A DNA stretch of 27,551 nucleotides from an uncultured Eubacteriales bacterium (GTDB lineage: Bacteria > Bacillota > Clostridia > TANB77 > UBA1234), in assembly GCA_964602275.1 (NCBI GenBank), contig CAZRQF010000010.1, forward strand, positions 1 to 27,551, read 5' to 3'. Positions within the stretch are counted from its first letter, which is position 1. The number at the start of each line of letters is the position of its first letter. Below, in pieces: positions 780 to 19,266 of the stretch. The translations under genes were made by a program, and so were the position numbers. The notes beneath the pieces are model-generated. The model worked only from the letters and a program-made list of their open reading frames with translations, did no database searches and was not told the origin of the DNA.

Positions 780-3700
780 TTATTGACCTATTAAATCATG
801 AGCAAGCGAATTTATATCTCTATGAGTTGTATTATTTTTTGTATAATCACTTACATATGTTATATGCTCACTATCTGCATATTTTTCGCCAACTTCTCTT
901 GTAACTTTTGAAATTCCTCTTCCATCACTCGATGCGTAAATAGTAGTTTCAATACCTGCATTCTCTATTGCTTCATATTCTTGAATTGGTTCTTTACCAT
1001 CTGAACCTTGTACACCGTCTACTATATGTAATTCTATTTGTGATGTCATGCCAGCTTCTGCTAAGTTTAGTGCTATCTCTGCTGCTGGATATCCACCACT
1101 GCTATACCCAATTAATACAATTTCTTTATCTTTATATTCATCAGATTGTAATAATTCCGAAATATCATCTATAGTTTGATACCACTCATTCCATCTTCCC
1201 ACATCGCCTGTTCCTGTAGGGACAAGCAATGTATCAGCATATGTATTATTTTTTAATGTTTGGTTTGCAGTAGCTTCAATTCCTCCTGTTATTGAACCAG
1301 AACCACCAAAGTATACATATACTTTTTCAGATTCTTCATTTGTTCCTACCTTTTGGTCGTATTTGGTTTTTCCTGTTTTCTTTTGGCTATAATTTTGTAC
1401 TTTTAATGTAAGTGAAACGCTTGTCGTCGTTCCTTTTAGTGACTTCATTTTTGCAGTTATCTTAGCATATCCAATGCCTTTTAAAACAACTGTACCATCA
1501 TTTTGTATTGTTGCAACATTTTCATTGTTACTAATATATTCAATATTTTTTAATGTTTCTTCACTAAGTAAGGTTTCGTCTATTGGGAATTTATATGTTT
1601 TTTCTCCTATGTCTAGTTTTACTGTTGAGTTATTAGTTGTTAATTTTAATGTTTCAGCTTTTACATTAACTTCTTTCGTTACAGTATTTCCCGATGAAGT
1701 TTTTAATGTTATTTCTGCTTTTCCTGCTTTCTTAGCTTCTATCACACCATTATTAGTTACAGTAAGTGTCTCTTTATCTGAGCTTGATATTTCATATTCT
1801 TCTGTTGCGTTTTCTGGTTTTGTTGTTATTATTGCTTGTACTTTTTGCCCTGCAAATATCACATCATTTTTTGTATTTATCTCAATATTCATTTCTGTTA
1901 TAGGAATTATTTGATTTGTAACATTAACTACATATATATTTTCTTTTTCATCTTTTATGATTGTTGTTCCAAGTTCAACACCTATAATTTTATTTTCAGA
2001 AACTATTAAACTCTTACCAGAAATTACTTGTAAGTTTTCTACACCACTTAAAGTTACTTCTTCATCAAGGAAAATGCTCATTTGACTTGATGGTTCTTTT
2101 GTTTTTCTTTCTTTTACTACAATCTCTCTCGTTTCCATTGCTAATCTTGTACCAGTTTTATTATAGTAAGAAACTCTTAATGTATGCTTTCCTAATATGC
2201 TTGGAGTATATGCGATATTATTTACTCCTGCATTTTGATTTATATCTCCAACACCACTTATATTCCATCTTATAAAGCCATTCCCGTTATTTGGCGTTGC
2301 AATAGCACCTAATATTGTTTCTTCATCTAAATAAATTTCATCTGGTATATCAACCTTCAAACTATATTTTGGATTATATTTTATATCTATAGTTTGTGTT
2401 GCTATATTTTTAGTTTCATTAATATATGCTTTAACAGTTATTTTTACTGTTGCATCTTTAGTTTTTGAATTTTCTATAACTTTAGCTTCTGCATTTCCTG
2501 CATTATCAACAGAAATTAATTTTTCATTGCTACTAGTATACTTTATTTTTATATTTTCATTACCATTATGAGTAACCGTAATTTGAGTACTTTCGCCTGG
2601 CAACAAACTTGAAGTATCATACTTAACTTGCATTGAAAAATCGCTATCACATCTGTCACATTTATTAGCCTTTGTAAATTCATGATTTTCTCTTATTTCT
2701 AGTTTTGCATTGCATTTTTGGCACTCTATAGATTTTATATGTTTGTTACTATCACTTGAATTATTATATGTTGTTTTATAATTTTCTGAATCATGCTCAC
2801 AAATATAAGTTCCTTCTTGATAGCCACAACTACATTTACCATTGTTTAAAGTATGTGCTTCTAATTTGAAAAATCCTCGCTTACAAATTTCACAATAGTA
2901 ATACACTTTGTGACATGTTTCATCATATCTAACTTGATGCAAAGTAGGCCTTGGAGAATGTCCATCTAATATTTCAGTTGCACTACATTTCTTTTCTTCA
3001 TTTTTCTCGAATCCGCAATCAAAACATTTACCATTTGAACTGAAAATATGATTTTCAACATGAGTAAATGAACTATTACATGCCATGCAGCGCTCTGTAA
3101 TTTCATGAGTGTTTTCGTCGATACTAATACATTCAACTTTAAATATAGGATGCCCAGCATTAATATTATCTTTACTACACTTTTTAATAAAAGTACATTT
3201 TATACATCTGTTATCACTACCAAATTCATGATTTTCTTCAATCGCCAAATCACATTTTTTACATTTTATAGTATGCTTTGTTTCATCTATCGAAGAATAT
3301 ATATACTCATGTGCACACTCTACCTTATATGAACATACCTTGCATATTTTATTTTTATCAAAGTTATGTGCTTCTGCTCTAGTTGCAGAGCAGTTTTTAC
3401 AATTTAGCAGGTGTGTCTTTGCATTCACTTCTCCGCCACTATATTCAAACACATGATTTCCTTTATATCCACATGTAACGCAAACTTCGCCATTTAGATT
3501 GTGCTTTTCATTTTTAGTGCTACTACATCTTGTACAAGATAAAGTATGAGTTGTTGTAGTTTTTTTGCCTCCACTATATTTATATTCATGTCCAAGTGCT
3601 GTGCCACTTATTTCTCCACACTTTGTACATGTCTTTGGAGATGTACATGTTGCATTTTTCCATGTATGTGTACAATTTCTTTTATATCCACATTTTGTGC

Positions 3701-4898
3701 ATTTATCATTACTGTTGAAACTATGATTTTCTTCATAAGTATTACTACATTTTCTACATTTCAAACTGTGTTTTGTACTATTTACTGATGTGTATACATA
3801 TTCATGATCACATACCGTTTTATATCCACACACTTTGCATATTCCACTTGAATTTAAATTATGATTTTCAGATTTTGTTGCAGAACAATTTTCGCATCTT
3901 AATGTATGCGTATCTTTTCCGTATCCATCATCATCATATACATAATTATGTCCAAGTGCCGTGCCACTTGTTTCTCCACACTTTGTACATGTCTTTGGAG
4001 ATGTACATGTTGCATTTTTCCATGTATGTGTACAATTTCTTTTATATCCACATTTTGTGCATTTATCATTACTGTTGAAACTATGATTTTCTTCATAAGT
4101 ATTACTACATTTTCTACATTTCAAACTGTGTTTTGTACTATTTACTGATGTGTATACATATTCATGATCACATACCGTTTTATATCCACACACTTTGCAT
4201 ATTCCACTTGAATTTAAATTATGATTTTCAGATTTTGTTGCAGAACAATTTTCGCATCTTAATGTATGCGTATCTTTTCCGTATCCATCATCATCATATA
4301 CATAATTATGTCCAAGTGCCGTGCCACTTGTTTCTCCACACTTTGTACATGTCTTTGGAGATGTACATGTTGCATTTTTCCATGTATGAGTACATCCAGC
4401 CTTATAAGCACAAACTTTACATACATTATCCGAATTGAAGTTATGTGTTTCTTTTCTTGTCGCAGTGCAGTTAGCACATTTAAGCAAATGTCTTTGTGCC
4501 TCTGGAGTATCACCCATATACTTAAAACTATGGTCTAACACATCTATTTTTTCGGTAAAGCTAGCTCCACAAATGCATGTATATGTTCGCTCGCCCTCAT
4601 TACTACATGTAGCATTTTTAGTTATTTTGGCTTGATATTTGTGTGGCTCTCTATATCCACATACCGTACAAGTATGCAAATTATTCCAAGTATGTGCACT
4701 CGTTGCCACACTTTGAACTACACTATTACATTTTTTACAAAGCAAAATGGATGTATGTGTAGTGCTTGTAGTATTATATGTAATAGTTATATCAATATTT
4801 CCACAATTATTACATTTCATAGCGGCATATGTACATGCATATTGGCAACACAAAGCCACAAAAACGAGCGTTAGTAACATTATTAATTTTTTTCTCAT
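780..4898 (-). CDS. Secreted 1372-aa multidomain surface protein: signal peptide, Cys/His mini-module array, Ig-like (Big_2-style) repeats, C-terminal alpha/beta-hydrolase-like domain
   Basis: ATG at 4898 lies 9 nt after GGAGG. The signal peptide is MRKKLIMLLTLVFVALCCQYACTYA. Residues ~26-752 carry about 27 CxxC motifs by my count, in repeating modules. Residues ~755-1160 contain Big_2-like strings (KYTSSNEKLISVDNAGNAEA, ISSSDKETLTVTNNGVIEAKKAGKAEITL, YISNNENVATIQNDGTVVLKGIGYAKITA). The last ~180 aa have a GxSxG nucleophile elbow, VLIGYSSGGYPAA (codons near 1092-1109). TAA stop. Confidence 0.85.
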   Translation of the reverse strand: MRKKLIMLLTLVFVALCCQYACTYAAMKCNNCGNIDITITYNTTSTTHTSILLCKKCNSVVQSVATSAHTWNNLHTCTVCGYREPHKYQAKITKNATCSNEGERTYTCICGASFTEKIDVLDHSFKYMGDTPEAQRHLLKCANCTATRKETHNFNSDNVCKVCAYKAGCTHTWKNATCTSPKTCTKCGETSGTALGHNYVYDDDGYGKDTHTLRCENCSATKSENHNLNSSGICKVCGYKTVCDHEYVYTSVNSTKHSLKCRKCSNTYEENHSFNSNDKCTKCGYKRNCTHTWKNATCTSPKTCTKCGETSGTALGHNYVYDDDGYGKDTHTLRCENCSATKSENHNLNSSGICKVCGYKTVCDHEYVYTSVNSTKHSLKCRKCSNTYEENHSFNSNDKCTKCGYKRNCTHTWKNATCTSPKTCTKCGEISGTALGHEYKYSGGKKTTTTHTLSCTRCSSTKNEKHNLNGEVCVTCGYKGNHVFEYSGGEVNAKTHLLNCKNCSATRAEAHNFDKNKICKVCSYKVECAHEYIYSSIDETKHTIKCKKCDLAIEENHEFGSDNRCIKCTFIKKCSKDNINAGHPIFKVECISIDENTHEITERCMACNSSFTHVENHIFSSNGKCFDCGFEKNEEKKCSATEILDGHSPRPTLHQVRYDETCHKVYYYCEICKRGFFKLEAHTLNNGKCSCGYQEGTYICEHDSENYKTTYNNSSDSNKHIKSIECQKCNAKLEIRENHEFTKANKCDRCDSDFSMQVKYDTSSLLPGESTQITVTHNGNENIKIKYTSSNEKLISVDNAGNAEAKVIENSKTKDATVKITVKAYINETKNIATQTIDIKYNPKYSLKVDIPDEIYLDEETILGAIATPNNGNGFIRWNISGVGDINQNAGVNNIAYTPSILGKHTLRVSYYNKTGTRLAMETREIVVKERKTKEPSSQMSIFLDEEVTLSGVENLQVISGKSLIVSENKIIGVELGTTIIKDEKENIYVVNVTNQIIPITEMNIEINTKNDVIFAGQKVQAIITTKPENATEEYEISSSDKETLTVTNNGVIEAKKAGKAEITLKTSSGNTVTKEVNVKAETLKLTTNNSTVKLDIGEKTYKFPIDETLLSEETLKNIEYISNNENVATIQNDGTVVLKGIGYAKITAKMKSLKGTTTSVSLTLKVQNYSQKKTGKTKYDQKVGTNEESEKVYVYFGGSGSITGGIEATANQTLKNNTYADTLLVPTGTGDVGRWNEWYQTIDDISELLQSDEYKDKEIVLIGYSSGGYPAAEIALNLAEAGMTSQIELHIVDGVQGSDGKEPIQEYEAIENAGIETTIYASSDGRGISKVTREVGEKYADSEHITYVSDYTKNNTTHRDINSLAHDLIGQ
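3591..4388 (-). repeat. In-frame 360-bp tandem repeat (about 2.2 copies) inside the 1372-aa gene
   Basis: Every base from 3611 to 4028 equals the base 360 nt downstream, so 3611-4388 is 100% self-identical at period 360. Lines 3661-3960 and 4021-4320 are letter-for-letter identical. Identity breaks at 4389 (a vs t), and at 3600 and 3610 at the other end. The repeat encodes a 120-aa unit, CTHTWKNATCTSPKTCTKCGETSGTALGHNY...KCTKCGYKRN. Confidence 0.95.
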
Positions 4899-4961
4899 AT
4901 AAATTTACCTCCTCATTTGTAAATTTCACATTAGTATTAATAATTATTATAAGTTTTAAAT

Positions 4962-5921
4962 TTAGTTTTCATATCCCGCTTCATACTTTGAAAGCCATAT
5001 TCCAGTAAGTTCTTTTCCACCATTTTTATAACCCGTATTAGGTGTCGTATCAGTTTCAGCACCTGTATATTCTCCAAAGTAAAACGCTGGATGTTTTATA
5101 TATCCATCTTGTGTATAGTCTGTTGTAAGTTTGCTATATACTACGCTTATACTACCGCTTTCTTCTTTATAAGTATACCTAGGTATCCATACAAAAGCAC
5201 TTCCCTCTTTTGTAACTTTTTTGCCAACTAAACTTTCTTTTGTACTTTTTCTTACTTCATCGTTTGTCATTCCTTCAAGTTCTATATCGTCCACAAGCAT
5301 TACATTTGCCCATTGATTTACCGCTACACTATAATCATACCATTCTTCATCATATTCTGATGTTACCACCCAAGCGTTATAGATATCGATATATTTTACA
5401 GGTAGCATTCCACTTATAACTATTGGCTTGTTTACACCTTTTTCTTCGTCATATTCACCTGTTTGAGCTAATAGTTCGTTATCTAACTCACTTCTTATTA
5501 GTTCTTCTAAAGTATATATCTGTTTGCTTTCTAATAAGATAGCATTTTTAGAAATAACTTCGCCTGTTGAATAATTAACCACATAATCTCTTGTTACATT
5601 TGATAACCCAAGTGAAGATGCCATTTCTTCGGGAGTAACTAAGTAGTACCCATCACCGTAAGTTACGCCGTTAATTTCAATTGCATCAGTAGTAGTTAAT
5701 TTTTTGCCGACAAGTGGATAGATTGTATTATCCAATCTATTTTCCACTTGTCTTTCTTGAATTGCACTACTCACTTCTTTCATTTCATTATATATCTTTG
5801 TGAAATTAGCTTTGTTTATATTGTATTCGTATCCAATAAAAATACTAATACTAGCAAGTATAAGCAGAACTACTATTGTAATAATTAATGTAATTAATGT
5901 AATACCTCTTTTATTTCTCAT
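4962..5921 (-). CDS. Pilin-like protein with a prepilin-type (class III signal) N-terminus; function unknown
   Basis: The N-terminus MRNKRG/ITLITLIITIVVLLILASISI has a short basic leader ending in Gly, followed by a ~22-residue hydrophobic helix, as in type IV pilins and pseudopilins. Position +5 is Thr rather than the usual Glu. ATG at 5921 lies 12 nt after the upstream gene's TAG, and the gap contains GGAGGGA. TAA stop. Confidence 0.6.
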   Translation of the reverse strand: MRNKRGITLITLIITIVVLLILASISIFIGYEYNINKANFTKIYNEMKEVSSAIQERQVENRLDNTIYPLVGKKLTTTDAIEINGVTYGDGYYLVTPEEMASSLGLSNVTRDYVVNYSTGEVISKNAILLESKQIYTLEELIRSELDNELLAQTGEYDEEKGVNKPIVISGMLPVKYIDIYNAWVVTSEYDEEWYDYSVAVNQWANVMLVDDIELEGMTNDEVRKSTKESLVGKKVTKEGSAFVWIPRYTYKEESGSISVVYSKLTTDYTQDGYIKHPAFYFGEYTGAETDTTPNTGYKNGGKELTGIWLSKYEAGYEN

Positions 5922-5933
5922 CTAATGTCCCTC

Positions 5934-8900
5934 CTACTTATTAATAATTGTAACTCTGAAGCTACTATTGCTACTTGCCGTATTGTCAACATTGCTACCA
6001 GTATTTTCACTAGACATCATAACATACGGTGAAGCTGTACTTCCAATGTTAAAGTCCGTTATCGTTAAACCTTTGTAAAGATTTAATCTAGCACCTTTTA
6101 ATATATCAACATATTTCGCATTTGCCATAGATAATGTTGTTCCTGTTGCATTTGCGTTAAACGCTGCAACATATTCATTTTCTATTTTCGAAATGCCATA
6201 TCTTGATAGCTTAGATGTACCTATGCCCTCTATGTTTTGAGGTAATACTGCATCATATGATTTCGCAGTCGTTGCATTTGATAACATTACTGCTGCACCT
6301 ACATCTCTAGCCCTACTCATAAACATGTCGCTTTGTGTACTACTAATTCCATATCTATATTGTAATTTGTTATCTTCTCCCAATTCTACTTTACCAGAAA
6401 GATTTTTTGACAATACATATGCATCGTTTATTGATAAAGCACCTAATGAAGTATTGTCGCTTGTAAATCTTACATTTTTTGATACGCTTTGTGTTGTAGA
6501 AACTTTAACACTTGCCATATAACCAGACTTATCCTTAAATGAAAATGTTACATCTGTTAAATCACTATATACATTAAGTGTATATTTCTTTACATATTCA
6601 TTACTGCTATTTTTAGTCATTTGACTTTCAAATGCTTCTGGCGAAACAAACTTAACATCTCTATTTGCGATAAATGTTACAACTGAATATTTTCTATATA
6701 AAGTTGGTTCTTGCACGCTGTATTCAACCGTTAATGCTTCTGTATTAAATGTGTCTATTGTTTGAGTAACATTACTAGAATATCCATTATCATCTTTAAA
6801 CTCTGCCGTATAAATTCCATTTTTACTAACAACAACATAGAAAGAATATGCATACTCTGCAACTTCTCCTACGGTATTTTTAATTTCTACATATTTAGTT
6901 TTCTTAATAGTTGCATTTAATATGTTTTGTGCTTCATTTTTCGTCAAATCTATATTTTCATTATTTAGTTTTAAGTATTTTAGTGGCGATGTAGATTTAA
7001 CTACAAGTTCAAGTTCAACAGCATCTTTTCCATTTACAGTTGATATTACATTGTCGCTTATAAAAGTAAATCTACCAATCGGAACGATATCTACAGGAAA
7101 TTCATATAAATCTTTTTCATCAATAGTTAAAGTAACTTCTCTTGATTTTACATTAAATATACCATTTGAAACTATACATCTATACATATTTCCATCCATA
7201 TCTGCAGTTGCAATTGGTGTCTTATAACTATCACTCGTTTCTCCTACTATATCTGTCCATTTTTTACCGCCATCAATGCTTGTTTGCCATTTAAATGTAT
7301 ATTTACTTGGCACACCACCAATTACCGTTATTGTAAATGTTGTGCTTTCGCCTATTCTTAATGTCACATTTTGTGGTCCATTTACTATCGGTGCTGTATA
7401 TACTCGCAAATATCCAATATCGTATGTTTTGCCATTAATAACTTGAGTGCTTAAATGTATATCATAGCCCTCTTGATATACAGGTTCTATTGTTCCAGTT
7501 GCAAAATATAACTTATGAGTATTTTTAACATTTGCTTCAATTTGATTAATATTTAAATCACTTATAACATTTGAACTAATATCAATTACATCTTGATATA
7601 TTACATTTTTTCTACCTGCACTTTGAAGTACACCATCATAAAACTCAAGTTTTGATGTAGCTTTCAAACTTATATACGCAATCTTTTCGCCTCTTATTAT
7701 TGGTTTTGTTGTTATAACAACATCATCTGCCTTATTACCTATTGTAACCTTTGCTGTACTGTTATTTAAAATACCAACTTGACCACCTACAATTGTACCG
7801 CCAAATATATTAACATTACCCGTGTTACCATCTAATAAGGCAACACCTGCTCGTGAACCTGTTAATAAATTTTCGCTTTTTATTGTAACTTCGCCAGTTG
7901 TAAATACTCCTATTGCATCACCTTGATTTGTAGCGCTTGTGCTAGTCGCACTAATAGTGCCACCAGATATAGTAGCTGTTGCATTTCCTTTTACTAAAAC
8001 GCCTCTAACTGCTGAAATGTTTCCATTTGCAGTAACATTACCATTTACAAACTCTAATTTTGAATTACCCTCAAGAGTTATAGCACCATGTTCTGCTTCC
8101 ATATAATTTTCCGCAATAATATTTACATTACTTCCATTTACTATAACTTCGCTAGAAGCTTCCCCTCTAACATGAATTGGCTTTGCACCTCTAACTGTAC
8201 CGCCTGTAAATGTTGCTGTTCCCAAATTATCTAAAACATAATTATATATATTTGTAAGCGTTGGCGTACCATTAACTTCTAATGTACCTTTATTTAAAAT
8301 AAGTGTAGTTGAAGGATTTGCCGTTTTCTTTATCGTACCATTGCCACAAATAATAAGTTTTGAAGTAGTAGGAATTTCAATACCTGCATTTTCCGCTAGC
8401 GTAATATAATGACTACCTGTATCTAGCGTTACCGTTTTATTAGTTGGCACTTGTGCAGATTTTTCAGCAGAAACATCTTTTCTTACTACCACAGTTTCTA
8501 AAGTTAGTGCTGCATCAAAAGCTTGTTGCAATGTTTCATAATAATTTTCTTCGCTATTTCTTTTTATCATATAATTACTTGCAATAACTGTAACTTCAAA
8601 TTCTGTGCTTGCTTCATTGTAATTTGTTCCTTGAGAAGCCGTAACAGTTATTTTTACTTTTCCTGCATTCTTTCCAGTTACAATAATTTGATTTTTCGTA
8701 GAGTCAACACTACTAATTGCAATATTTTTATCACTACTTTTAGCAGTAACTGTACCATCCCCGTTATACGAATATGTTACATTTATAGTTTCATTTTCCA
8801 TAACACTTTGATTAGCTGACGATGTTATTGTTATAGTAGCATCTGCTCTTGATATTTCAAATTTTTTCGATGTGCTTCCAGTATAATTTTTTGAAGTACT

Positions 8901-11900
8901 TTTTGCTGTAACTATTAATTTAGCTTCTTTGCTAGCATTTATGTTATTACTATAACTATATTCAAAATCTTCCGCTCCTAATGTCGTATTAGTTCCTTTT
9001 GGTATTGGCACTGTTACCGTTGGTGTTGGTTTCTTTTCTTTTCCATCGTATACAAATTCTTCAATCGTACCTATGGTTGCATTGCTTAAATCATATTTTT
9101 TTATTGTCCAAGGTATTTCTTTTTTTTCCGTAGAACCATCTTTCCATTTGTAATTCTCTGGGTCTTTTAATGATATAGTTATATTTTCTGTGCCTGCATC
9201 TTTTCTCTTATTATTGTCTATTTGCATAGTATTATCATCAACACCTGTAACATTAGCAGTTTGCTCTTCTCCATTATATATGTAATCATCTTTATTTTCT
9301 AATTTCGGCACATCTAGAGTCGCCTTATCAACTGTTGCTGTTACATTTGAACCATCTGTTATATCTACAAATGTATTAGTTGTATAGTTTGTTCTAGTTG
9401 CTATTACCGTTACGCCTATATATTTTCCTACAAGTCCACTTCCTATTGTATAAGTCTTGCTTGTTGCACCATTTATGATTGTTCCGCTTGTTGCGGTGCT
9501 ACTCGTTGAATACCACCATTGATATGTAAGCGTACAATCACTTGGATTTATGGCGGATGTATCCAAACTTAAAGTTTGTCCATATGTATTTGTACCTTTT
9601 ATCGTTACGCTTCCACTAATTTCTGAACTAATAACATTAAATTCAACAGGTGCTGTTGTTGCTCCTTTATAATTTGTAGTTTCTCCAACTACTGCATACA
9701 TATAATATTTTCCTACATTTAGATATGTCGAACTTGTTACATTGCTCCATGGAGTTCCACCACTATTTGAGTTTGTAGTATTGTAATAATATGTTTCTGT
9801 TCCATTTCCTGTATTTCCCGAAATAGTTGGTGTCGATTTTGTTCCTCCATATGTATAGTTACTCATGCCTACTGTTGGGTTAATTGTTGCTTTGCTTACT
9901 GTTGCAGTTTTATTGTTTGTCGCATCTGTTATATCTGTAAATGTTTTTGTTGTATAGTTCGTTCTAGTTGCTGTTACTGTTACGCCTATATATTTTCCTA
10001 CAAGTCCACTTTCTATTGTATAAGTCTTACTTGTTGCACCATTTATATTTGTTCCGCTTGTTGCTGTACTACTTTCTGAATACCACCATTGATATTTTAA
10101 TGTACAATCGCTTGGTTCTATAGCGGATGTATCCAAACTTAAAGTTTGTCCATATGTATTTGTACCTTTTATCGTTACGCTTCCACTAATTTCTGAACTA
10201 ATAACATTAAATTCAACAGGTGCTGTTGTTGCTCCTTTATAATTTGTAGTTTCTCCAACTACTGCATACATATAATATTTTCCTACATTTAGATATGTCG
10301 AACTTGTTACATTGCTCCATGGAGTTCCACCACTATTTGAGTTTGTAGTATTGTAATAATATGTTTCTGTTCCATTTCCTGTATTCCCCGAAATAGTTGG
10401 TTCTGCTTTTGTTCCTCCATATGTATAATCACTCATGCTCACTGTTGGATTAATTGTTGCTTTACTTCCTATTGTAACTGTACATACAGCTGATGCCTCT
10501 GTGTAGTTTTTTGAAGCTCCCGCTGTTACTTTTATCGTTACACTTGTGTTTATTGCAAGCGTACTTAAATTTGATACTGTAACTGTAGTTCCACTTATTC
10601 CCACAGTTGCTACTGTTGTTGTAGTTTGTTCTGCATCAAGTGTTGCTCCACTATGATAAGCAGTTACATTAATCGATGTGCTACTTGTTCCATAAGGCAA
10701 ACTAACCGACATTGGACTTAATGTAATATATCCTGCTGCCTGTTTAACTTTAAATTCAGCTGTTGCCGTTGTTGTTCCTTTGTAGTTAGTTGTTTCCGCA
10801 ACTGTTGCATACATATAATATGTACCTGCATTTAATGATGTTGAACTTGTTACATTGCTCCAAAGAGTTCCACCGCCATTTGAGTTTGTAGTATTGTAAT
10901 AATATGTTACCGTACCATTACCTGAATTTCCTGAAATAGTTGGTGTCGATTTTGTTCCTCCATATGTATAGTCACTCATACTTACTGTTGGATTAATTGT
11001 TGCTTTACTTACCGTTAAATCATACTTTGCTGTTTTTGTTGCATAAACATATTGTGCAGTATCTTCTACCGTTGCAGTTATTGTTGCATTTCCTACGCCA
11101 ACAATTGTTACCTTTCCTGTGCTGCTATCTACTGTCGCCACATTTGCATTTGAAGATGTATATTTTACCGTGCCATCTCCTGTGTTGGTTAGCGGATTTA
11201 CAAAAGCTAAATCTCCATATGCTTTGCTTACTTTTGTTGTTGCATAACTTATGCTTGCTGATATTTGAACACCATAACCGCAAGTATCACATTTTCCGTC
11301 TGAATTACTATCTTTGTGATTTTCTTTATTATAAGTAGTTGCACCACAAACCGTACATACTTTCCAGTGATTTGTTTCATCCATTTTCCAACTAGATGAA
11401 GTATGCCCTAATGCATCACCATATGTATATGTTTCTGTTCCTTTTGCTGTACATCCCTCTCTACTACATCTGTAATAATACACGGCTGCCTCTGTACAAG
11501 TTGCACTACTTTTTAAATAGGTTGATGATGTATCTTTTGTTGTAAAACTATGTCCTACCGCATTCCATATTATAGCTCCACATCTTGTACATGTCTGTGG
11601 TGTTGTACAAGTAGCAGCTGCACCGTTAATATGACCTAACGCTGCAATTGTTTCGCCATCTGTAGCTCCACAAATAGTACATGCTTTTTGCTTATACCCC
11701 TGTTCTTCACAAGTTGGTTCTGTTATAGTTGCATATGAACCGTAATTATGTAAGCATGAGTAACCACAAATTTTACATTTGTGATCATCAAGCCATGTAT
11801 GATTTTCTGTTGAATCAGTTTCTTCTTTCGAACAACTACTACATGTACGCACAGGCGTATGTGTTGTTTCTGTTGTTTCATATGTAGTAGTCCAATTATG

Positions 11901-12896
11901 TTGATGCGGATCTTCATAAGTAAGAATTATTTGTCCATATTCATATTTGCCTTCTGTGCTCGCTACCGTTACTCCATCCGTCGCTCCTCTTACTCCATCA
12001 TATATATAGTCATATCCATTTGAATTCAATGCGCAATATAAATATGCATATGATGGTAGTGTCCTTGCAATCGACCTTGATGTACCAGATGCCGCAACCC
12101 ATGTGTTATATGTAGTTGGGCTACTTGGTATTGAAACTGAATATGTCTGATTTGCATCAAGCCTTGAATTAGCATCGGAATTCAGAGAGTCATACATACC
12201 AATCATTGCTAATGTTCCACTCGCACCTGCCGTACTACCGCTAATATCATAATATCCAACATATATTGGAGCTGATGTAAAATCAGTCTTATAATGTATA
12301 TATGCTCTTGTTACTCCTGCTGGAATACTATCTGTAAATTTAAGTTGCCTTGGTGTTCCGCTATCACTTTTGCTTATACCCGTTGCTGTTATCGTTACTG
12401 TTAAAGCTGTACTTCTTTCGTTTTTTACAATACAAATCTCAGTTTCATCATCAGACTTATCTGATATAGGTGATATGTACCCTTTCTCATATCCACAATA
12501 TGTACATATATCATCTACGAAATTATGATTTTGTATTATTTGATATGCACAATATTTACAATCACCTTGACACTCAGTATCATTCTTTGCCACATACACC
12601 ATACTATGTGGCGAACTACTACTCATTACATATCCACATACACATGTTCTCTTATGCCCAGATGCTCCCAAATTCTCAAAAAATGCTGGATAGTGTCCTT
12701 CTAGTGTAACGGCCGTAACATTACACTTTCCACATGTATAATTTACCTGGTGCGAACTACTCGTAATATCTGAATAAGTTACAACTAAAGGCCTATTACA
12801 AGCACCACATGTTGCAGCCTCCACTCTGCCGCCAAATCCAATTATAATTGTCGCTATTATTAAAATCATGCTAAATAACATTGCTTTATTTTTCAT
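5934..12896 (-). CDS. Giant secreted 2320-aa adhesin-like protein: Cys/His mini-modules, MBG/YDG-like and Ig-like repeats, parallel beta-helix, unassigned C-terminal ~400 aa
   Basis: The ORF track extends to 13055, but the ATG at 12896 (MKNKAMLFSMILIIATIIIGFGGRVEA, a typical signal peptide) lies 7 nt after GGAGGG. Cys modules occupy ~12480-12830 and ~11275-11910. Big_2-like strings include VKYTSSNANVATVDSSTGKVTIVGVGNATITA. MBG/YDG-like units include KATINPTVSMSDYTYGGTK...AGTYYMYATV and EEFVYDGKEKKPTPTVTV...NYTGSTSKKFEI. Glycine/asparagine-rich beta-helix rungs at ~7400-8575 include GNVTANGNISAVRGVLVKGNATATISGGTISA. An Ig-like domain at ~7125-7400 carries the DGNMYRCIVSN motif. TAG stop at 5934-5936. 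Confidence 0.85.
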   Translation of the reverse strand: MKNKAMLFSMILIIATIIIGFGGRVEAATCGACNRPLVVTYSDITSSSHQVNYTCGKCNVTAVTLEGHYPAFFENLGASGHKRTCVCGYVMSSSSPHSMVYVAKNDTECQGDCKYCAYQIIQNHNFVDDICTYCGYEKGYISPISDKSDDETEICIVKNERSTALTVTITATGISKSDSGTPRQLKFTDSIPAGVTRAYIHYKTDFTSAPIYVGYYDISGSTAGASGTLAMIGMYDSLNSDANSRLDANQTYSVSIPSSPTTYNTWVAASGTSRSIARTLPSYAYLYCALNSNGYDYIYDGVRGATDGVTVASTEGKYEYGQIILTYEDPHQHNWTTTYETTETTHTPVRTCSSCSKEETDSTENHTWLDDHKCKICGYSCLHNYGSYATITEPTCEEQGYKQKACTICGATDGETIAALGHINGAAATCTTPQTCTRCGAIIWNAVGHSFTTKDTSSTYLKSSATCTEAAVYYYRCSREGCTAKGTETYTYGDALGHTSSSWKMDETNHWKVCTVCGATTYNKENHKDSNSDGKCDTCGYGVQISASISYATTKVSKAYGDLAFVNPLTNTGDGTVKYTSSNANVATVDSSTGKVTIVGVGNATITATVEDTAQYVYATKTAKYDLTVSKATINPTVSMSDYTYGGTKSTPTISGNSGNGTVTYYYNTTNSNGGGTLWSNVTSSTSLNAGTYYMYATVAETTNYKGTTTATAEFKVKQAAGYITLSPMSVSLPYGTSSTSINVTAYHSGATLDAEQTTTTVATVGISGTTVTVSNLSTLAINTSVTIKVTAGASKNYTEASAVCTVTIGSKATINPTVSMSDYTYGGTKAEPTISGNTGNGTETYYYNTTNSNSGGTPWSNVTSSTYLNVGKYYMYAVVGETTNYKGATTAPVEFNVISSEISGSVTIKGTNTYGQTLSLDTSAIEPSDCTLKYQWWYSESSTATSGTNINGATSKTYTIESGLVGKYIGVTVTATRTNYTTKTFTDITDATNNKTATVSKATINPTVGMSNYTYGGTKSTPTISGNTGNGTETYYYNTTNSNSGGTPWSNVTSSTYLNVGKYYMYAVVGETTNYKGATTAPVEFNVISSEISGSVTIKGTNTYGQTLSLDTSAINPSDCTLTYQWWYSTSSTATSGTIINGATSKTYTIGSGLVGKYIGVTVIATRTNYTTNTFVDITDGSNVTATVDKATLDVPKLENKDDYIYNGEEQTANVTGVDDNTMQIDNNKRKDAGTENITISLKDPENYKWKDGSTEKKEIPWTIKKYDLSNATIGTIEEFVYDGKEKKPTPTVTVPIPKGTNTTLGAEDFEYSYSNNINASKEAKLIVTAKSTSKNYTGSTSKKFEISRADATITITSSANQSVMENETINVTYSYNGDGTVTAKSSDKNIAISSVDSTKNQIIVTGKNAGKVKITVTASQGTNYNEASTEFEVTVIASNYMIKRNSEENYYETLQQAFDAALTLETVVVRKDVSAEKSAQVPTNKTVTLDTGSHYITLAENAGIEIPTTSKLIICGNGTIKKTANPSTTLILNKGTLEVNGTPTLTNIYNYVLDNLGTATFTGGTVRGAKPIHVRGEASSEVIVNGSNVNIIAENYMEAEHGAITLEGNSKLEFVNGNVTANGNISAVRGVLVKGNATATISGGTISATSTSATNQGDAIGVFTTGEVTIKSENLLTGSRAGVALLDGNTGNVNIFGGTIVGGQVGILNNSTAKVTIGNKADDVVITTKPIIRGEKIAYISLKATSKLEFYDGVLQSAGRKNVIYQDVIDISSNVISDLNINQIEANVKNTHKLYFATGTIEPVYQEGYDIHLSTQVINGKTYDIGYLRVYTAPIVNGPQNVTLRIGESTTFTITVIGGVPSKYTFKWQTSIDGGKKWTDIVGETSDSYKTPIATADMDGNMYRCIVSNGIFNVKSREVTLTIDEKDLYEFPVDIVPIGRFTFISDNVISTVNGKDAVELELVVKSTSPLKYLKLNNENIDLTKNEAQNILNATIKKTKYVEIKNTVGEVAEYAYSFYVVVSKNGIYTAEFKDDNGYSSNVTQTIDTFNTEALTVEYSVQEPTLYRKYSVVTFIANRDVKFVSPEAFESQMTKNSSNEYVKKYTLNVYSDLTDVTFSFKDKSGYMASVKVSTTQSVSKNVRFTSDNTSLGALSINDAYVLSKNLSGKVELGEDNKLQYRYGISSTQSDMFMSRARDVGAAVMLSNATTAKSYDAVLPQNIEGIGTSKLSRYGISKIENEYVAAFNANATGTTLSMANAKYVDILKGARLNLYKGLTITDFNIGSTASPYVMMSSENTGSNVDNTASSNSSFRVTIINK
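9324..10463 (-). repeat. In-frame 570-bp tandem duplication (2 copies, 190 aa each) inside the giant gene, with a diverged partial third copy at ~10750-11006
   Basis: The Lys codon that opens KATINPTV recurs at 10461-10463 and 9891-9893, giving a 570-bp period. A 263-bp core (9553-9815 vs 10123-10385) is 100% identical. The flanks of each copy carry scattered substitutions. Confidence 0.95.
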
Positions 12897-13155
12897 CAAA
12901 TTCCCTCCAAATTGGTTTTCCTTTTGTTTAAAATTTTCATAGTCGTCAAGCATTTCTTCTCGTACTTTTTCTTTCCATCGCCTAAAGATGCGACTACCGC
13001 CCGCATGATTGCCACTTACACGCTTCGGCACCGAACTATTATTTACATCCCACATAATCGCATCTCACACCCTTTCCCAATTTGAAATTTTAAAACTTAC
13101 ATTGCTTTTGTCTTTCAAAACATAAGCAATACTATCTACACTTTTTGTCTTATCT
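12897..13155 (-). promoter_or_regulatory. Long (~260 nt) GC-enriched 5' leader of the giant-protein operon; candidate structured cis-regulatory RNA, class not identified
   Basis: This is the distance from the predicted -10 (13162-13167) to the RBS-supported ATG at 12896. Lines 12961-13020 and 13021-13080 are 48% and 47% GC by hand count, against ~27% in a typical coding line here. In the minus-strand RNA, UCGCAUC (12993-12987) can pair either with distal GAUGCGA (13064-13058) or with proximal AUGCG (13006-13002). A further hairpin is AUUGCUU/AAGCAAU (13101-13130). Confidence 0.35.
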
Positions 13156-13161
13156 TATCGA

Positions 13162-13190
13162 ATTATATCTTTTTAGAAAACAATTGTCCA
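13162..13190 (-). promoter_or_regulatory. Sigma-A-type promoter of the giant-protein operon
   Basis: The minus strand reads TGGACA (13190-13185), a 17-nt spacer, then TATAAT (13167-13162). That is one mismatch in the -35, a perfect -10 and optimal spacing. Confidence 0.65.
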
Positions 13191-13436
13191 CGCACCCGCA
13201 CGCACGCATATATAATATTAGAAGCAAATTAAACAAAAAGCATGCCAAAAGCGTTTACGGAAGCAATTTTCAAAAGAAAAGCTATTCACACATTATAGCT
13301 AAATGTTAAATTTATTTTACAAATATGTTACGAAAATGTTACAAAATTAGCTCGATTATTCCATTAAAAACACCAAACTTGCCATTCCGTAATCTCCTAC
13401 TTTCATTTTACATCTCACATAACTTTCTATCTATGC

Positions 13437-13469
13437 AAAAAAACTGGCACAAGTTCCTACTTGTACCAG
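13437..13469 (-). terminator. Rho-independent terminator after the yhaN-like gene
   Basis: An 11-bp stem pairs 13444-13454 with 13459-13469 around a 4-nt loop. It has one G-U pair on the minus strand. A run of 7 T follows on the minus strand (A-run 13437-13443 on plus). It begins ~30 nt after the stop at 13501. Confidence 0.8.
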
Positions 13470-13500
13470 TTTTGGCATATTTTATTAATTTGTTTTACTA

Positions 13501-15249
13501 TTACATTTTTATTAAATTATATTCTATTTTCAACTCATCTAATATTGCTTTTTCTCTGTCGCTACATGTAAACATTATTATTTGTTTTTCTTTTGAGATA
13601 TTGTTTAATGTTTGCATTATGTTTTTTAGTCGCTCGTCATCATAATAAGCAAATGCTTCATCTAGTATAATTGGCAAGTTTGATAGTTTGTTTAATATTG
13701 CAAGTCTAAAGCCAAGATATATTTGATCAATAGTTCCTGCACTTAACTTTTCTATTGATGTTATATCTCCAAATTTATTTTCTATTACTATGCCATTTAT
13801 TCCGTTGTACTTTACATTTGTATATTCTCCATTAGTTGTTTGTGCAACACTTTTTTGTATCTCCAAAGTAATCCCTGGAACTATTCTAGACTTTAATTCT
13901 TCATATGACTTTTCAAAAACTTCTAAAGCTAATTTTAAGCTTGCTTCTTTTTCAGTAATTTGATTTTGCTTTTCGTTAAGACTTTCTATTTCTTCTTCTA
14001 GTTCATTTAACTTGTTTACACCATTTTCTAATGTATCTTCTTCTATTTTCAATTTATGAGATTGCAATATATAATCTGTCTTAGTTTTTTCATATCCATC
14101 TATTAAAGTCTTTAGTTCCGTAAGTTTTCTTTCTATTATGCTCTTTTTTATGCCTTTAGTTTCTAGTTGTTGTAATTCTTTATTTTCTTTTTTCTTTAAA
14201 TCTTCTACTACTAAATCAAATTGATTAGTATCGACATTTGGTTGCGTTGCACTCGCTTTTTTAAAATTATTTATTGCAAGTAGAATTATTACAGGCAATA
14301 TTGAAACTAGTATTAAATAATTTTTAAAAATAATAGTCAATATAATTTCTATTATAGCAATCAAAGCCATTATGATATTAACTTTTTTCTTAGCAAGTTT
14401 TTCTTTTTTTTCGTTTTCCATAGCTTGCTTTTCAATAACTTTTTGTTCTGCATCATATATGTTTCGTTTCTCGTGTAAAAGATTTTGGTATTTTTCTTTA
14501 ATAGTGCAAACTTCGTTCATATTATTTATTTCTTTAGTTATTTCATCTAACTTACTTTCAATCTTTTTTATTTCACTTTCTATGATTTCCTGTCTTTCAC
14601 GCTTATGCAAAAGTTGCTCTCTTTGTATCTTTTTTAATGCCAACTCCCTATTTACAATGTTCTTAGGTTTGCTCTGCGTTCTATCTGTCCCCACCTCATC
14701 AAACAATATTTTTTCTAGTTTTTTAGTTACATTTTCATAAGATACATTTTCATCTCCCGATTGAATCATATTGGTTAATTTTTGTATAATATTTTTTTGC
14801 GAATTTATATCTACATCAATGTTCTTTTGTGTTATGAATGCTGTGTTTTCAAAAGTTTCTTCGTCCACCTCAAACTGTTCACTACCTATGATTACTCCTC
14901 TACTTTTATCTTTTGCAAAGTTATTAGTTATATCAACGCCAGTTGCATCAAATATTTTTGTACTGTTTTTATTAAAATCTCTATATACACTATAAACATT
15001 TCCACATGCTTCATACTCTGCTTTTCCACTAAACTCACTTTCTTGCCAAGGCTTATACCTTTCAACCTCAGAAAAAATGTTGCCTGCTTTATTTTTATTA
15101 ATGCCATAAAACATTGCCTTAATGAAACCCATTAATGTAGACTTACCAGATTCGTTTGAACCAACAATTAAATTTAAACCATCTACAAATTCTATATTTT
15201 TATTTTCTAATTTTCCAAACCCATTAACTTGAATATTTTTTAGTTTCAT
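13501..15249 (-). CDS. yhaN: SbcC/Rad50-like AAA ATPase of the YhaN (SbcE) type, with a central transmembrane hairpin
   Basis: The N-terminus MKLKNIQVNGFGKL...LIVGSNESGKSTL contains a Walker A motif. Long Lys/Glu-rich coiled-coil segments follow. The C-terminus has LSAGTIDQIYLGFRLA (signature motif) and PIILDEAFAYYD (Walker B). A hydrophobic hairpin VNIIMALIAIIEIILTIIF...LILVSILPVIILLAI spans aa 290-328. ATG lies 5 nt after AGGGAGG, 11 nt after the upstream stop. Confidence 0.8.
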   Translation of the reverse strand: MKLKNIQVNGFGKLENKNIEFVDGLNLIVGSNESGKSTLMGFIKAMFYGINKNKAGNIFSEVERYKPWQESEFSGKAEYEACGNVYSVYRDFNKNSTKIFDATGVDITNNFAKDKSRGVIIGSEQFEVDEETFENTAFITQKNIDVDINSQKNIIQKLTNMIQSGDENVSYENVTKKLEKILFDEVGTDRTQSKPKNIVNRELALKKIQREQLLHKRERQEIIESEIKKIESKLDEITKEINNMNEVCTIKEKYQNLLHEKRNIYDAEQKVIEKQAMENEKKEKLAKKKVNIIMALIAIIEIILTIIFKNYLILVSILPVIILLAINNFKKASATQPNVDTNQFDLVVEDLKKKENKELQQLETKGIKKSIIERKLTELKTLIDGYEKTKTDYILQSHKLKIEEDTLENGVNKLNELEEEIESLNEKQNQITEKEASLKLALEVFEKSYEELKSRIVPGITLEIQKSVAQTTNGEYTNVKYNGINGIVIENKFGDITSIEKLSAGTIDQIYLGFRLAILNKLSNLPIILDEAFAYYDDERLKNIMQTLNNISKEKQIIMFTCSDREKAILDELKIEYNLIKM

Positions 15250-15260
15250 AAATGCCTCCC

Positions 15261-16295
15261 TTACATGTTTTTATATACATATTCAATTGCATTTAATACA
15301 ATCTTTTCATCTTCTGGATTATCTTGTAATCGCATTAACATATTTTTTGTAAATATTCCTTTAAGTGTATCCTGCTTTGCAATTTCTTCAAGATTATACT
15401 CCAAATGCGTGTTATCGATAATTTCAGTTATATAGTTAGGTAACTCACTAACACTTTCTTTTAATTTTTGAATTGCTACATGTCTTGTACCCGTAAGGAC
15501 TAATCTATATATATCATTTTCCATATGCAAATTATCTATAATTTCTTGAACCGTTTGAAAATCGCTAATATCAATTTCTTTTATAACAAACTGTTGCTCA
15601 TCCATCTTTTTAAATTCAATATTTACTTTTTTGTCTACAACCTCTCCTATAATCAATCCATGCTCAGAAAGTTCGTCAAATCCACCCGCTAATAAACTGC
15701 CAGGATAGATTATATTTGAATCATCAATTTTTGGCATGTGAATATGCCCAAGTGCAACATAATCAAACTTCTGCAAATTTTTAGACTTCATATCATTATA
15801 TTTGTGTGTTACTCCATCTAAATTACCATGTGCAATTAAAATGTTAGTCTTACTCTCATCAACATCAATTTCGGAAACAACATCTCTATCAAATTCATAA
15901 TCATCAAATCCAAAGCCGTATACATTTATGCCTGCTACTTCATACATTCCTACATCACTACCAAAAATATATACATTTTCTGGCCAATCATATACATTGT
16001 ATGGCGAGTTCTTAATTAACGGATCATGATTTCCAGGAGTAATAAACACTTTAATATCTGGTATATCATTTAAGCAAGAAATAACATACTTAATTGTATC
16101 TTCTTCAACATATTTATTTTCAAACAAATCACCTGCAATAAAAACTGCATCTACATGCTCAGCTTTTGCAAGCTCAATACTTCTTTTAAAAACTTGCTTT
16201 TGGCTATTTCTTCTTTTTTTCACAAGCTCTCTATTAGATTTAATAGAAGAAAAAACCATATCAAAATGAACATCAGCAAAATGTATAAATTTCAA
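15261..16295 (-). CDS. yhaO: SbcD/Mre11-like metallophosphoesterase of the YhaO (SbcF) type
   Basis: The calcineurin-like phosphoesterase motifs appear in order: HFADVHFD, IAGDLFE, TPGNHD, IAHGNLDG, LGHIHMP. The start codon is TTG at 16295, 7 nt after GGGAGG. The gene is translationally adjacent to the SbcC-like gene. Confidence 0.85.
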   Translation of the reverse strand: MKFIHFADVHFDMVFSSIKSNRELVKKRRNSQKQVFKRSIELAKAEHVDAVFIAGDLFENKYVEEDTIKYVISCLNDIPDIKVFITPGNHDPLIKNSPYNVYDWPENVYIFGSDVGMYEVAGINVYGFGFDDYEFDRDVVSEIDVDESKTNILIAHGNLDGVTHKYNDMKSKNLQKFDYVALGHIHMPKIDDSNIIYPGSLLAGGFDELSEHGLIIGEVVDKKVNIEFKKMDEQQFVIKEIDISDFQTVQEIIDNLHMENDIYRLVLTGTRHVAIQKLKESVSELPNYITEIIDNTHLEYNLEEIAKQDTLKGIFTKNMLMRLQDNPEDEKIVLNAIEYVYKNM

Positions 16296-16327
16296 TTTGA
16301 AACCTCCCTATAAAAAAATATATATAA

Positions 16328-16356
16328 ATTATAAATCTAAGCAAAAATACTTTCAA
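16328..16356 (-). promoter_or_regulatory. Sigma-A-type promoter of the yhaO-yhaN operon
   Basis: The minus strand reads TTGAAA (16356-16351), a 17-nt spacer, then TATAAT (16333-16328). Confidence 0.6.
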
Positions 16357-16445
16357 GCGAACACGCAAATATATTTTACATCCGGCAAAGTAGCCTCACA
16401 AAAACATAGCAAAATCTTTGGTATAGTAGATATGCAAAAATGCGA

Positions 16446-16470
16446 TAAAAAAATCCGACTGTTGTCGGAT
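16446..16470 (-). terminator. Rho-independent terminator immediately after the coupling-protein gene
   Basis: Stem ATCCGAC (16453-16459) / GTCGGAT (16464-16470) with a 4-nt loop. A 7-T run follows on the minus strand (A-run 16446-16452). The hairpin starts right after the TAA at 16471-16473. Confidence 0.85.
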
Positions 16471-18513: not shown

Positions 18514-18556
18514 TCATGGTTCCTCCTTTGTAATTTGTTTAAATAAGAAAAGTTAA

Positions 18557-18730
18557 TTATTCTCCTACTTCTACTTCTTCTCTTGCTTTTGCTTGTTCTA
18601 ACGCTTCTTTTGCATCGTAATTGTTGTCAACTGTTGGAACATGATCTTTGCCATATTCACGAGATTTTCCTTTAGTAGGAGTGAACCTTGATTTACTATC
18701 ACTTGTTCCTAATCCCATGTTAATTCTCAT
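18557..18730 (-). CDS. Small hydrophilic protein, 57 aa (not in the supplied ORF track, below its size cutoff)
   Basis: My own translation of the minus strand gives MRINMGLGTSDSKSRFTPTKGKSREYGKDHVPTVDNNYDAKEALEQAKAREEVEVGE, followed by TAA. ATG at 18730 lies 9 nt after AAAGGGG. The ORF exactly fills the gap between the upstream ORF and the T4CP gene. Confidence 0.5.
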   Translation of the reverse strand: MRINMGLGTSDSKSRFTPTKGKSREYGKDHVPTVDNNYDAKEALEQAKAREEVEVGE

Positions 18731-18756
18731 CGCTTAAAACCCCTTTCAAAATTTAA

Positions 18757-19266
18757 CTAATCTCTTACCTCTAATGCTATATACGATTTGTTTGGCAACA
18801 TTTTTATTTTTGCCTTAACTTCATTTGCTTCGCTATCATAATAAAGTACAGGCTTTACTTCGTCACCAGCTTCTGGATCTATTATTGAAATCGGGCGTCT
18901 AAAATTAGGAGTATATTTTATATCTGTATATTCAGTAGCTTCTGTGCTATACAACTTTTTATAAGTTACAAAATCTGCTTTCTAGCCTACTGAAAGTTGG
19001 CCTGTTTCAAATGTTGCAGAATTTAATAATGCCTTACCATTGCCAACAGTCAAAAGCACTAAATCTTTTTTTGCATTTTCTGCTTCTCCATCGTTAAAAT
19101 AAAAAGTCTTTTTGATGCCTTCCGCTTCTTGCTTTACGGAACAATCAAGCTTTTGTAATGTGTACACCGCTTCACTATTCTCATCCGCTTTACTAATTAA
19201 AAAGGCTAATGTCTTCATATCATTCGGATCTAGTACTGTAAAATTTGAATTTTCTAATTCTCCCAT
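18757..19266 (-). pseudogene. 170-codon ORF of unknown function interrupted by one in-frame TAG (18982-18984); either a nonsense pseudogene or a 94-aa product with a silent tail
   Basis: Track ORFs 18982..19311 and 18757..18954 are in the same frame (19311, 18981 and 18954 are congruent mod 3). The junction reads ...GQLSVG-TAG-KADFVTYKKLYSTEA.... The downstream piece starts at a TTG with no RBS. The upstream piece has a good start at 19266 (AAAGGAG, 7 nt, then ATG; MGELENSNF...). The ATG at 19311 would lie at or before the predicted transcription start. Confidence 0.55.

Follow-up and report, generated by a model that had tools for sequence, protein, structure and literature searches.

A giant secreted protein with a conserved C-terminal module is encoded next to a Glu5-less pilin-like protein in uncultured gut Clostridia: a possible pilin-presented adhesin

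Organization of the operon

We analyzed a 27,551-nt stretch of contig CAZRQF010000010.1 from an uncultured Eubacteriales bacterium (hereafter the window; GC content ~31%), focusing on an operon of three consecutive minus-strand open reading frames (ORFs): gene A (5934-13055 as the longest ORF), which encodes a giant secreted protein, gene B (4962-5921), which encodes a pilin-like protein, and gene C (780-4898), which encodes another large secreted protein. As described in an initial annotation made from the sequence alone, the intergenic gaps are exactly 12 nt (A/B) and 63 nt (B/C), and each gene is preceded by a ribosome-binding site (RBS); the GGAGGG RBS of B overlaps the TAG stop codon of A, and a GAGGAGG RBS precedes C. 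The sigma-70-type promoter assigned to the operon (TGGACA-17-TATAAT, 13162-13190, minus strand) is the top site of a 14-kb region with 11/12 matches, and both of its hexamers (-35 and -10) are retained in a related locus, L086, where the giant has just 62% identity across the C-terminal module described below. GTAACAT direct repeats 5´ of the promoter (13303-13347, minus strand) also are conserved between the window and L086 (~2540-2590 in the latter), where the flanking intergenic sequence has diverged, making them a candidate operator.

Between the promoter and gene A lies a leader of ~260 nt (12897-13155, minus strand), in which an in-frame upstream ATG at 13055 is used by gene callers. Translation of A most likely starts at ATG 12896 and not at the ATG 13055 of the longest ORF, because GGAGGG is located 7 nt upstream and a signal peptide is found at the resulting N-terminus; this start fits the leader proposed by the initial annotation. 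Rfam and tRNA scans of the whole window, including the leader, returned no families. A terminator scan of the coding strand inside the three genes detected no convincing internal terminator, in agreement with the earlier reading, and a bidirectional terminator hairpin (735-765, both strands; hairpin at 737-756, with A and T runs on either side) is located between C and the convergent dprA gene and is common to both transcription units. The hairpin is kept in locus L088, where it directly follows B. The dprA gene itself is not truncated; it simply extends past the window edge. On the upstream side, an sbcC-like gene terminates in its own hairpin. The operon is delimited by a conserved promoter and a shared terminator, with coupled RBSs and no internal terminator.

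Protein A has a variable N-terminal region and a conserved C-terminal module

Gene A (5934-12896, minus strand, stop codon included), with its start chosen by RBS and signal peptide, encodes a 2320-aa secreted giant. The signal peptide (MKNKAMLFSMILIIATIIIGFGGRVEA, with cleavage before Ala) is of the signal peptidase I (SPI)/AXA type and was recognized by inspection. The whole protein fits an architecture of SPI signal, variable N-terminal region, and conserved C-terminal region. The variable part, or passenger, spans residues 28-1434 (8595-12815, minus strand) as judged by Pfam and comparison with relatives, and comprises Cys/His modules, Big_2, MBG-like domains, and Ig repeats. Only Big_2 and SCAB-Ig were recognized by Pfam in this region, and in relatives it is replaced by DUF285/LRR_5/MBG_2 architectures. 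Within the passenger, in-frame repeat units of 570 nt at 9346-11016 are 86-95% identical to each other. We infer an adhesin function for this adhesin-like giant.

Conservation changes abruptly near residue 1435, a boundary seen across 10+ loci. The ~885-aa module that follows (residues 1435-2320; 5937-8594, minus strand) is co-linear in the giants partnered with B homologues and shows 28-96% identity across all giants encoded upstream of them. Word-indexed homologue searches with the A C-terminus found almost nothing; an exhaustive HMMER scan, used instead, detected the last 383 aa of A in only 25 clusters among 1.84 billion proteins, and the match extended to the last few residues of the protein in 23 of the 25. 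Invariant alignment columns in the terminal domain define the motif Q-x-RYG-x4-Q-x-DMFM-x-RARD-x-GA (6294-6362, minus strand), and the tail pattern [ASN][ST]FR[VAEI][TVI]I[IV][NG][KN]-stop is present in all partnered giants, A ending in …SFRVTIINK. On the basis of this conserved pattern, the last 12 residues of A (SNSSFRVTIINK; 5937-5972, minus strand) are a candidate plug strand.

An AlphaFold2 (AF2) model of the last 383 aa of A, built from 17 sequences, contained two confident Ig-like sandwiches in its residues 1-200, resembling Fc and intimin. The terminal ~180 aa, which include the invariant motif and the tail, were modeled with predicted local distance difference test (pLDDT) values of 30-55, and residues 372-383 had values below 50. 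An end that is strongly conserved yet is not modeled on its own would be expected of a docking element that depends on a partner.

Neither Pfam nor NCBIfam gave a match to LPXTG, SLH, CW_binding, choline-binding, LysM, or SH3 domains in A, B, or C, which bears out the initial description of the two large proteins as lacking wall-attachment motifs. In A and C, both libraries recognized Big_2 and Ig-type domains only. Even at relaxed Pfam thresholds, the conserved module of A matched no family beyond Ig, and the Cys/His modules matched none. We also considered a polymorphic-toxin reading of A and rejected it, since it is the N-terminus that varies while the C-terminus is maintained; toxin systems have the opposite pattern.

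Protein B has a pilin-type N-terminus and a domain found in type IV pilus operons

Gene B (4962-5921, minus strand) encodes a 319-aa protein that, by family alignment, profile comparison, and AF2 modeling, is a Glu5-less modular pilin-like protein. Its homologues fall into 194+ clusters, all from uncultured gut or rumen Clostridia and none annotated. Consistent with the initial annotation, which had confined the pilin-like helix to the middle gene, B is the only ORF of the window with a pilin-like N-terminus. This N-terminus (5832-5921, minus strand) consists of a class III-like signal and an alpha1N segment, MRNKRG then ITLITLIITIVVLLILA…, and is near-identical to that of pilins encoded beside pilD. 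The leader MRNKRG is short and basic and ends in Gly, and is followed by the predicted cleavage point and the hydrophobic stretch ITLITLIITIVVLLILASISIF. Gly6 does not vary among 29 diverse B homologues, the family N-terminal consensus is K-G-[IV]-[ST]-L-[IV]-[ST/A]-L-I-I-T-I…, and mature position +5 is Thr, Ser, or Ala throughout the family, never Glu.

When the B family profile was compared with PDB, nine of the 12 top hits were type IV pilins (best E 0.0014), and pseudopilins also were matched. In these alignments, B residues 8-56 lie on residues 2-49 of solved type IV pilins; the pairing of B residue 8 with mature pilin residue 2 implies cleavage after Gly6. NCBIfam matches to PpdD (E 2e-4) and GspG (E 1.4e-3) were both far below the cut-offs, and a 69-aa relative that shares the N-terminus of B passes the Pfam N_methyl threshold with 22.4 bits. 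In the AF2 model of B (pLDDT 79), residues 9-63 form a helix, which is followed by a small beta domain and, after a linker, by a beta-rich domain at residues 155-315.

The C-terminal domain of B (residues ~155-319; 4965-5459, minus strand), termed WIPR here, carries the motifs GSxFVWIPRY and GIWxSKYEAGY and has no match in PDB or in Pfam, also at relaxed thresholds. It is homologous to residues 144-338 of a large pilin encoded between pilD and pilB in locus L068 (34% identity, E 5e-27). Loci L056, L058, and L068, all from metagenome-assembled genomes (MAGs) of related Clostridia, encode pilins of 69-167 aa with a B-type N-terminus (KGITLVALVITIIVLLILA) beside pilD, in operons of the form pilM/N-…-pilA-pilD-X-pilB-pilT-pilC, where X is a 514-633-aa pilin with the C-terminal domain of B. 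In a subclade with B ~40% identical, B is located beside a Tad-like cluster (T2SSE ATPase, T2SSF-like platform, and ParA/TadZ-like ATPase). By these comparisons, B has a pilin-type N-terminus and its WIPR domain is associated with type IV pili in relatives, and we consider it quite probable that B is a genuine pilin with a class III signal.

We also noted that the candidate major pilins of the three pil operons (L056 2781-2996, L058 7344-7553, and L068 7499-8521) have Ala at mature position 5, and that the large pilin of these operons has the canonical Glu or Asp there. The 69-167-aa proteins are the sole candidate major pilins in these operons, and for a major pilin the lack of Glu5 would be unusual. 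Separately, some genomes encode seven or more scattered B-like paralogues, among them one MAG (Lapin-005 bin99; loci L027, L031, L038, L039, L043, L049, and L060). Such paralogues, of 550-630 aa with a GITLIAL-type N-terminus and a WIPR domain, occur at many further loci, mostly as stand-alone genes with no pilus genes nearby, and point to a large uncharacterized pilin-like family in gut Clostridia.

The C-terminus of A and B are syntenic across relatives

At every locus where B is at least 44% identical, B directly follows a giant ORF, with a gap of -1 to 38 nt. The giants range from 2371 to >4900 aa where the ORF is complete and differ in N-terminal domain content (DUF285, LRR_5, MBG_2), having in common the last ~885 aa and the tail. 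In the reverse test, metagenome contigs were scanned with the C-terminal motifs of A, and B was found immediately downstream in 9/9 loci, two of which duplicate contigs found earlier. Among B proteins, all 18 of the close subfamily have such a giant upstream, compared with none of the 14 others. Wherever downstream DNA could be examined, the A C-terminal module family was only ever upstream of B. Across the loci compared, the A C-terminus and B are strictly syntenic in both directions, and the giants share an architecture with a polymorphic N-terminus and a conserved C-terminus. We consider a functional link between A and B very likely.

In more distant genomes, B is found alone between sbcC and dprA, without a giant, which makes B the older resident of the locus. 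The same finding could be taken to mean that the sbcC-B-dprA interval is an insertion hot spot for large surface-protein genes and that A and B have no functional link, as could the clean insertion or deletion of C and the swapping of passenger regions between strains. However, independent insertions would not all bring the same 885-aa module, the same tail, and a near-zero gap to B, nor would a module family confined to the position upstream of B be expected from them, and we regard such an origin of the pair as very improbable indeed.

A functional link could take a form other than attachment. Instead of being a structural anchor, B might be dedicated to the maturation, secretion, or processing of the giant, for instance as an enzyme or chaperone whose target is the C-terminal module of A. 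The strict synteny and translational coupling would fit such a role, as would the invariant polar residues of the WIPR domain (S241, R248, D268, S311, and K312), and the invariant DMFMxRARDxGA of the A terminal domain could be a recognition or cleavage site. Yet B matches no enzyme family or fold, and the WIPR domain also is found on pilins of type IV pilus operons and on many stand-alone paralogues without giants, which leaves a processing role improbable in our view.

Among the loci in which B lacks an upstream giant, three (L013, L014, and L016; ~12750-20870, minus strand) have another giant ORF (>2695 aa) ~2 kb downstream on the opposite strand. This giant ends in a different conserved tail, …S[AT][ST][AV]SI[KT]I[YF]P[VI]EE, which may be an independent tail type.

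Comparison with known pilin-associated and surface-anchored proteins

Two 2026 studies show how PilC/PilY1 is retained at the tip of the type IVa pilus: its last ~10-12 residues contribute a beta-strand to PilK, a minor pilin that lacks Glu5 (PMC13533445; bioRxiv 10.64898/2026.09.18.752573). This large protein is secreted by way of an SPI signal, is variable in its N-terminal part and conserved in its C-terminal part, and has a tail that is disordered when modeled by itself (PMC13533445; bioRxiv 10.64898/2026.09.18.752573). Tip minor pilins characteristically have no Glu5 (PMC10191384). Like PilC/PilY1 (see also PMC7541494), protein A is large, is not itself a pilin, and bears an SPI signal; its N-terminal part is variable and putatively adhesive, its C-terminal part is conserved, its short conserved tail has low pLDDT when modeled by itself, and the adjacent gene encodes a pilin-like protein without Glu5. 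Unlike PilC/PilY1-PilK, A and B show no sequence or domain homology to either partner, A being without the propeller and B without a GspK/PilK domain; in addition, A is 2-5 times larger, the host belongs to the Clostridia, and no PilI/PilJ-like genes are found nearby.

Type IVa pili of monoderms have modular pilins in place of PilC/PilY1 (bioRxiv 10.64898/2026.09.18.752573), such as PilB/PilC of Streptococcus sanguinis, for which a role in functionalizing the filament tip has been proposed (PMC8179133, PMC9934059). These resemble B in joining a pilin module to a grafted C-terminal domain. In those pilins, however, the adhesin is the grafted domain itself; the grafted domain of B matches no known fold, and a separate giant, co-inherited with B, carries the adhesin-like mass. 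GspK of type II secretion systems and TadG/CpaL of Tad systems, which have their terminal strand in cis (PMC13533445), are like B in being large Glu5-less subunits with an extra domain and an end strand of their own, and the Tad-like cluster beside B in one subclade provides a related context. No homology between these proteins and B was detected, and in the window B is located outside a pilin or assembly operon. The TANB77 Tad-like cluster and 'pilin 938' (PMC11680825) likewise come from uncultured gut Clostridia and involve order-specific pilin-like proteins of unassigned fold, among them a minor pilin of ~620 aa that has just one N-terminal helix (PMC11680825); compared by description only, these clusters differ in gene sizes and order from the Tad-like clusters here. 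Finally, giant adhesins anchored by LPXTG/sortase, SLH, or choline-binding domains share with A a repetitive Ig-like/MBG architecture and a Sec signal peptide. In contrast to them, A is without those anchors; what is conserved at its end is a module particular to the lineage, coupled to the gene for a pilin-like protein.

By sequence criteria, the A-B pair falls outside PilY1, PilK, and every known anchor family. The initial assertion that no described system has this composition should be qualified: the PilC/PilY1-PilK tip complex (PMC13533445; bioRxiv 10.64898/2026.09.18.752573) and modular pilins (PMC8179133) offer close parallels, with no detectable sequence homology to the pair. The pair is best filed as a proposed pilin-presented large adhesin.

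A model for the presentation of A by B

Since the A-B pair repeats architectural features of PilC/PilY1-PilK with unrelated sequences, we put forward a model in which the conserved C-terminal module of A is the part by which B presents or anchors it, a proposal whose chances of being right or wrong we take to be evenly balanced. According to the model, A would be a Sec-secreted giant in which the N-terminal ~1430 residues form a fast-evolving, domain-shuffled passenger and the last ~885 residues serve as a conserved stalk and docking module, with a short beta-strand-like tail at its end. B, translationally coupled 12 nt after A, would be a pilin-type protein with a grafted C-terminal domain, inserted in the membrane as pilins are. 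It might cap or initiate a type IV or Tad-type filament, or remain a membrane-embedded pilin, and in either case would hold A at the cell surface through the C-terminal module. The likeliest contact would include the last ~10-12 residues of A adding a strand to a beta-sheet of B, as PilC/PilY1 does on PilK; strand addition as the specific mode of contact is a tentative suggestion. The variable Cys/His, Ig, and MBG region of A would be the distal, ligand-binding end, and C would be accessory cargo co-transcribed from the operon promoter.

On this basis, gut and rumen Clostridia could conceivably possess a non-homologous counterpart of PilC/PilY1-PilK, in which rapidly domain-shuffling adhesins of 2300-4900 aa are plugged, by a conserved strand or module at their C-terminus, into a Glu5-less modular pilin and so put on display by a type IV/Tad-type filament or a pilin anchor, though we consider so broad a generalization doubtful at present. 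If true, it would overturn the statement that monoderm type IV pili have no non-pilin tip adhesin. If B indeed presents A, the pair would be the first case in Clostridia, here a presumably monoderm lineage, of a pilin carrying a giant adhesin that is a protein of its own and not a pilin, reproducing with unrelated sequences a design so far documented only for PilC/PilY1 of diderm type IVa pili. Such presentation would also explain how multi-thousand-residue proteins without a known wall anchor are retained on the surface of uncultured gut bacteria, with a passenger that could be replaced without changing the docking end.

Several results weigh against the proposal that B is a pilin that presents A. 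No PilY1 beta-propeller (IPR008707/Pfam Neisseria_PilC) was found in A, even when sub-regions were searched at E up to 5, and no T2SSK/GspK/PilK domain (Pfam PF03934 and related) was matched in B. The conserved strand GIWxSKYEAGY at the end of B could fill its own sheet in cis, as in GspK. Because B is found without giants in distant genomes, it must have a function of its own. A segment of ~20 aa between the WIPR and WxSKY motifs (HPAFYxGEY…GGxE) is present in 18/18 partnered and 0/14 unpartnered B proteins, and the WIPR-WxSKY spacing is at least 57 in 18/18 of the former and at most 52 in 14/14 of the latter; this co-variation speaks in favor of a link between A and B, but is phylogenetically confounded because all partnered pairs belong to one clade. 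In B of the window, the partnered-only segment (HPAFYFGEY…GGKE), delimited by this spacing, corresponds to residues ~279-305 (5007-5087, minus strand). Finally, B itself scored 16.6 bits against Pfam N_methyl, below the cut-off of 21.2; its AF2 model matched neither a pilin nor any other structure when Foldseek was run against PDB; and no gene for a prepilin peptidase, an assembly ATPase, or a platform protein is present in the 27.5-kb window.

These last results, together with the lack of Glu5 anywhere in the B family and the conserved chromosomal place of B beside dprA, independent of pilus operons, also are what would be seen if B were an uncleaved, signal-anchored membrane protein outside any filament, tethering A or acting beside it, with a pilin resemblance that is ancestral only. 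However, the N-terminal segment of B shows much stronger sequence conservation than ordinary anchor helices do and matches pilins encoded beside pilD, the PDB profile matches are to pilins in a register consistent with cleavage, and pilins without Glu5 are the rule for tip subunits (PMC10191384). We therefore regard a purely ancestral resemblance as unlikely, if worth bearing in mind, and retain presentation of A by a pilin-type B as our working model.

Gene C is a strain-variable addition to the operon

Gene C (780-4898, minus strand) encodes a 1372-aa secreted protein, strain-variable across the loci, with Cys/His modules, Big_2 domains, and an alpha/beta-hydrolase-like end. In L088, in which B and the A C-terminus are both 96% identical to those of the window, B runs straight into the terminator and dprA, and there is no C. 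A homologue of C is found 61 nt after B in L089 and L090 (B 89% identical), which belong to one close strain group; C is absent from L084-L087, from L001-L011, and from all loci with B at 67-71% identity. The indel is clean, falling between stop codons and in front of the shared terminator. C has neither the conserved C-terminal module nor the tail of A, and ends in …AHDLIGQ. As judged from this distribution, C is an accessory, strain-variable gene and not a conserved partner, and the conserved unit is the A C-terminus plus B, not a trio.

The C-terminal domain of C (783-1382, minus strand) has a GYSSGG elbow and matched hydrolase families below threshold only: the last 200 aa gave 18.0 bits with Abhydrolase_6 (cut-off 26.3, E 0.005) and 16.5 bits with Hydrolase_4 (cut-off 27, E 0.005), and a weak match to PDB 2xmz (E 0.02) was aligned at the nucleophile elbow. 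What speaks for the serine-hydrolase head first ascribed to C is this elbow and these sub-threshold matches; the domain is probably of the alpha/beta-hydrolase type. A phage-tail reading of C was discarded, as PHROGs gave only Ig-domain matches. Gene C also contains a 360-nt tandem duplication of a Cys/His module pair (3588-4394, minus strand; 2.2 copies, 99%), detected with TRF and as repeat families D2/D5. The near-identical internal tandem duplications in A and C suggest that both genes are in rapid flux. Such duplications reflect very recent repeat expansion and carry a risk of assembly collapse in both genes.

In the initial annotation, A, B, and C were suggested to build a single surface structure in which B would anchor both giants through a Cys4 module located directly after their signal peptides. 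While its observations were largely confirmed, this interpretation was partly supported: a pilin-like protein does partner a giant, as the A-B synteny indicates, and the A C-terminus and B co-occur, but C is missing from L088 and other loci and appears only in the L089/L090 group. Co-transcription of all three genes and the recurrence of the trio in L089/L090 would fit a joint structure. So would the Cys/His module types common to A and C and the identical spacing of their post-signal modules, C-x2-C-x15-H-x5-C-x2-C, right after an AXA-type signal peptide. To call A and C paralogous is too strong, however, since the best BLASTP match between them (29% identity, E 2e-11) is limited to Cys/His module types. 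Likewise, the opening modules, described as homologous, have the same spacing, but their similarity with Cys and His fixed is not significant (P ~0.18), and the post-signal module of C resembles an internal module of A more than the post-signal one. Cys/His-rich post-signal openings also occur in unrelated giants of related genomes, and thus look like a habit of the lineage, not a mark of the operon. Against a three-protein structure, moreover, the A C-terminus is conserved with B whereas the N-terminal Cys module differs among partnered giants, C is absent from a locus as close as L088 as well as from L084-L087 and L001-L011, and C has no counterpart of the C-terminal module and tail; we give such a structure little chance.

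Other genes in the window

Upstream of the operon, a VirD4/TraG-type coupling protein is encoded at 16471-18513 (minus strand; T4SS-DNA_transf, E 2e-82). In chromosomal loci of distant relatives (L003, L009, L018, and L025), the coupling protein gene is syntenic with sbcCD and dnaD/dnaC-like genes, and it looks like a conserved chromosomal gene and not part of a mobile element. A plasmid or integrative and conjugative element origin of the window was dropped given this synteny of the type IV secretion system coupling protein; plasmid DNA and protein searches with the window gave no matches. In L018 and L007, a VirB4-like ATPase is encoded beside a Tad-like cluster.

A dnaJ-like gene at 19343-20252 (minus strand) is split into two overlapping ORFs, one with the J domain and the start of DnaJ_C and the other with the rest of DnaJ_C. 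The L025 counterpart is one intact ORF of 294 aa, and the split in the window is likely a frameshift, a pseudogene, or an assembly error. Further along, a 618-aa ORF (22899-24755, plus strand) that matches no Pfam family and has just one hydrophobic segment, centrally placed, is convergent with a gene at 24805-26502 (minus strand) encoding a Cthe_2159-domain protein (beta-helix, carbohydrate-binding-like).

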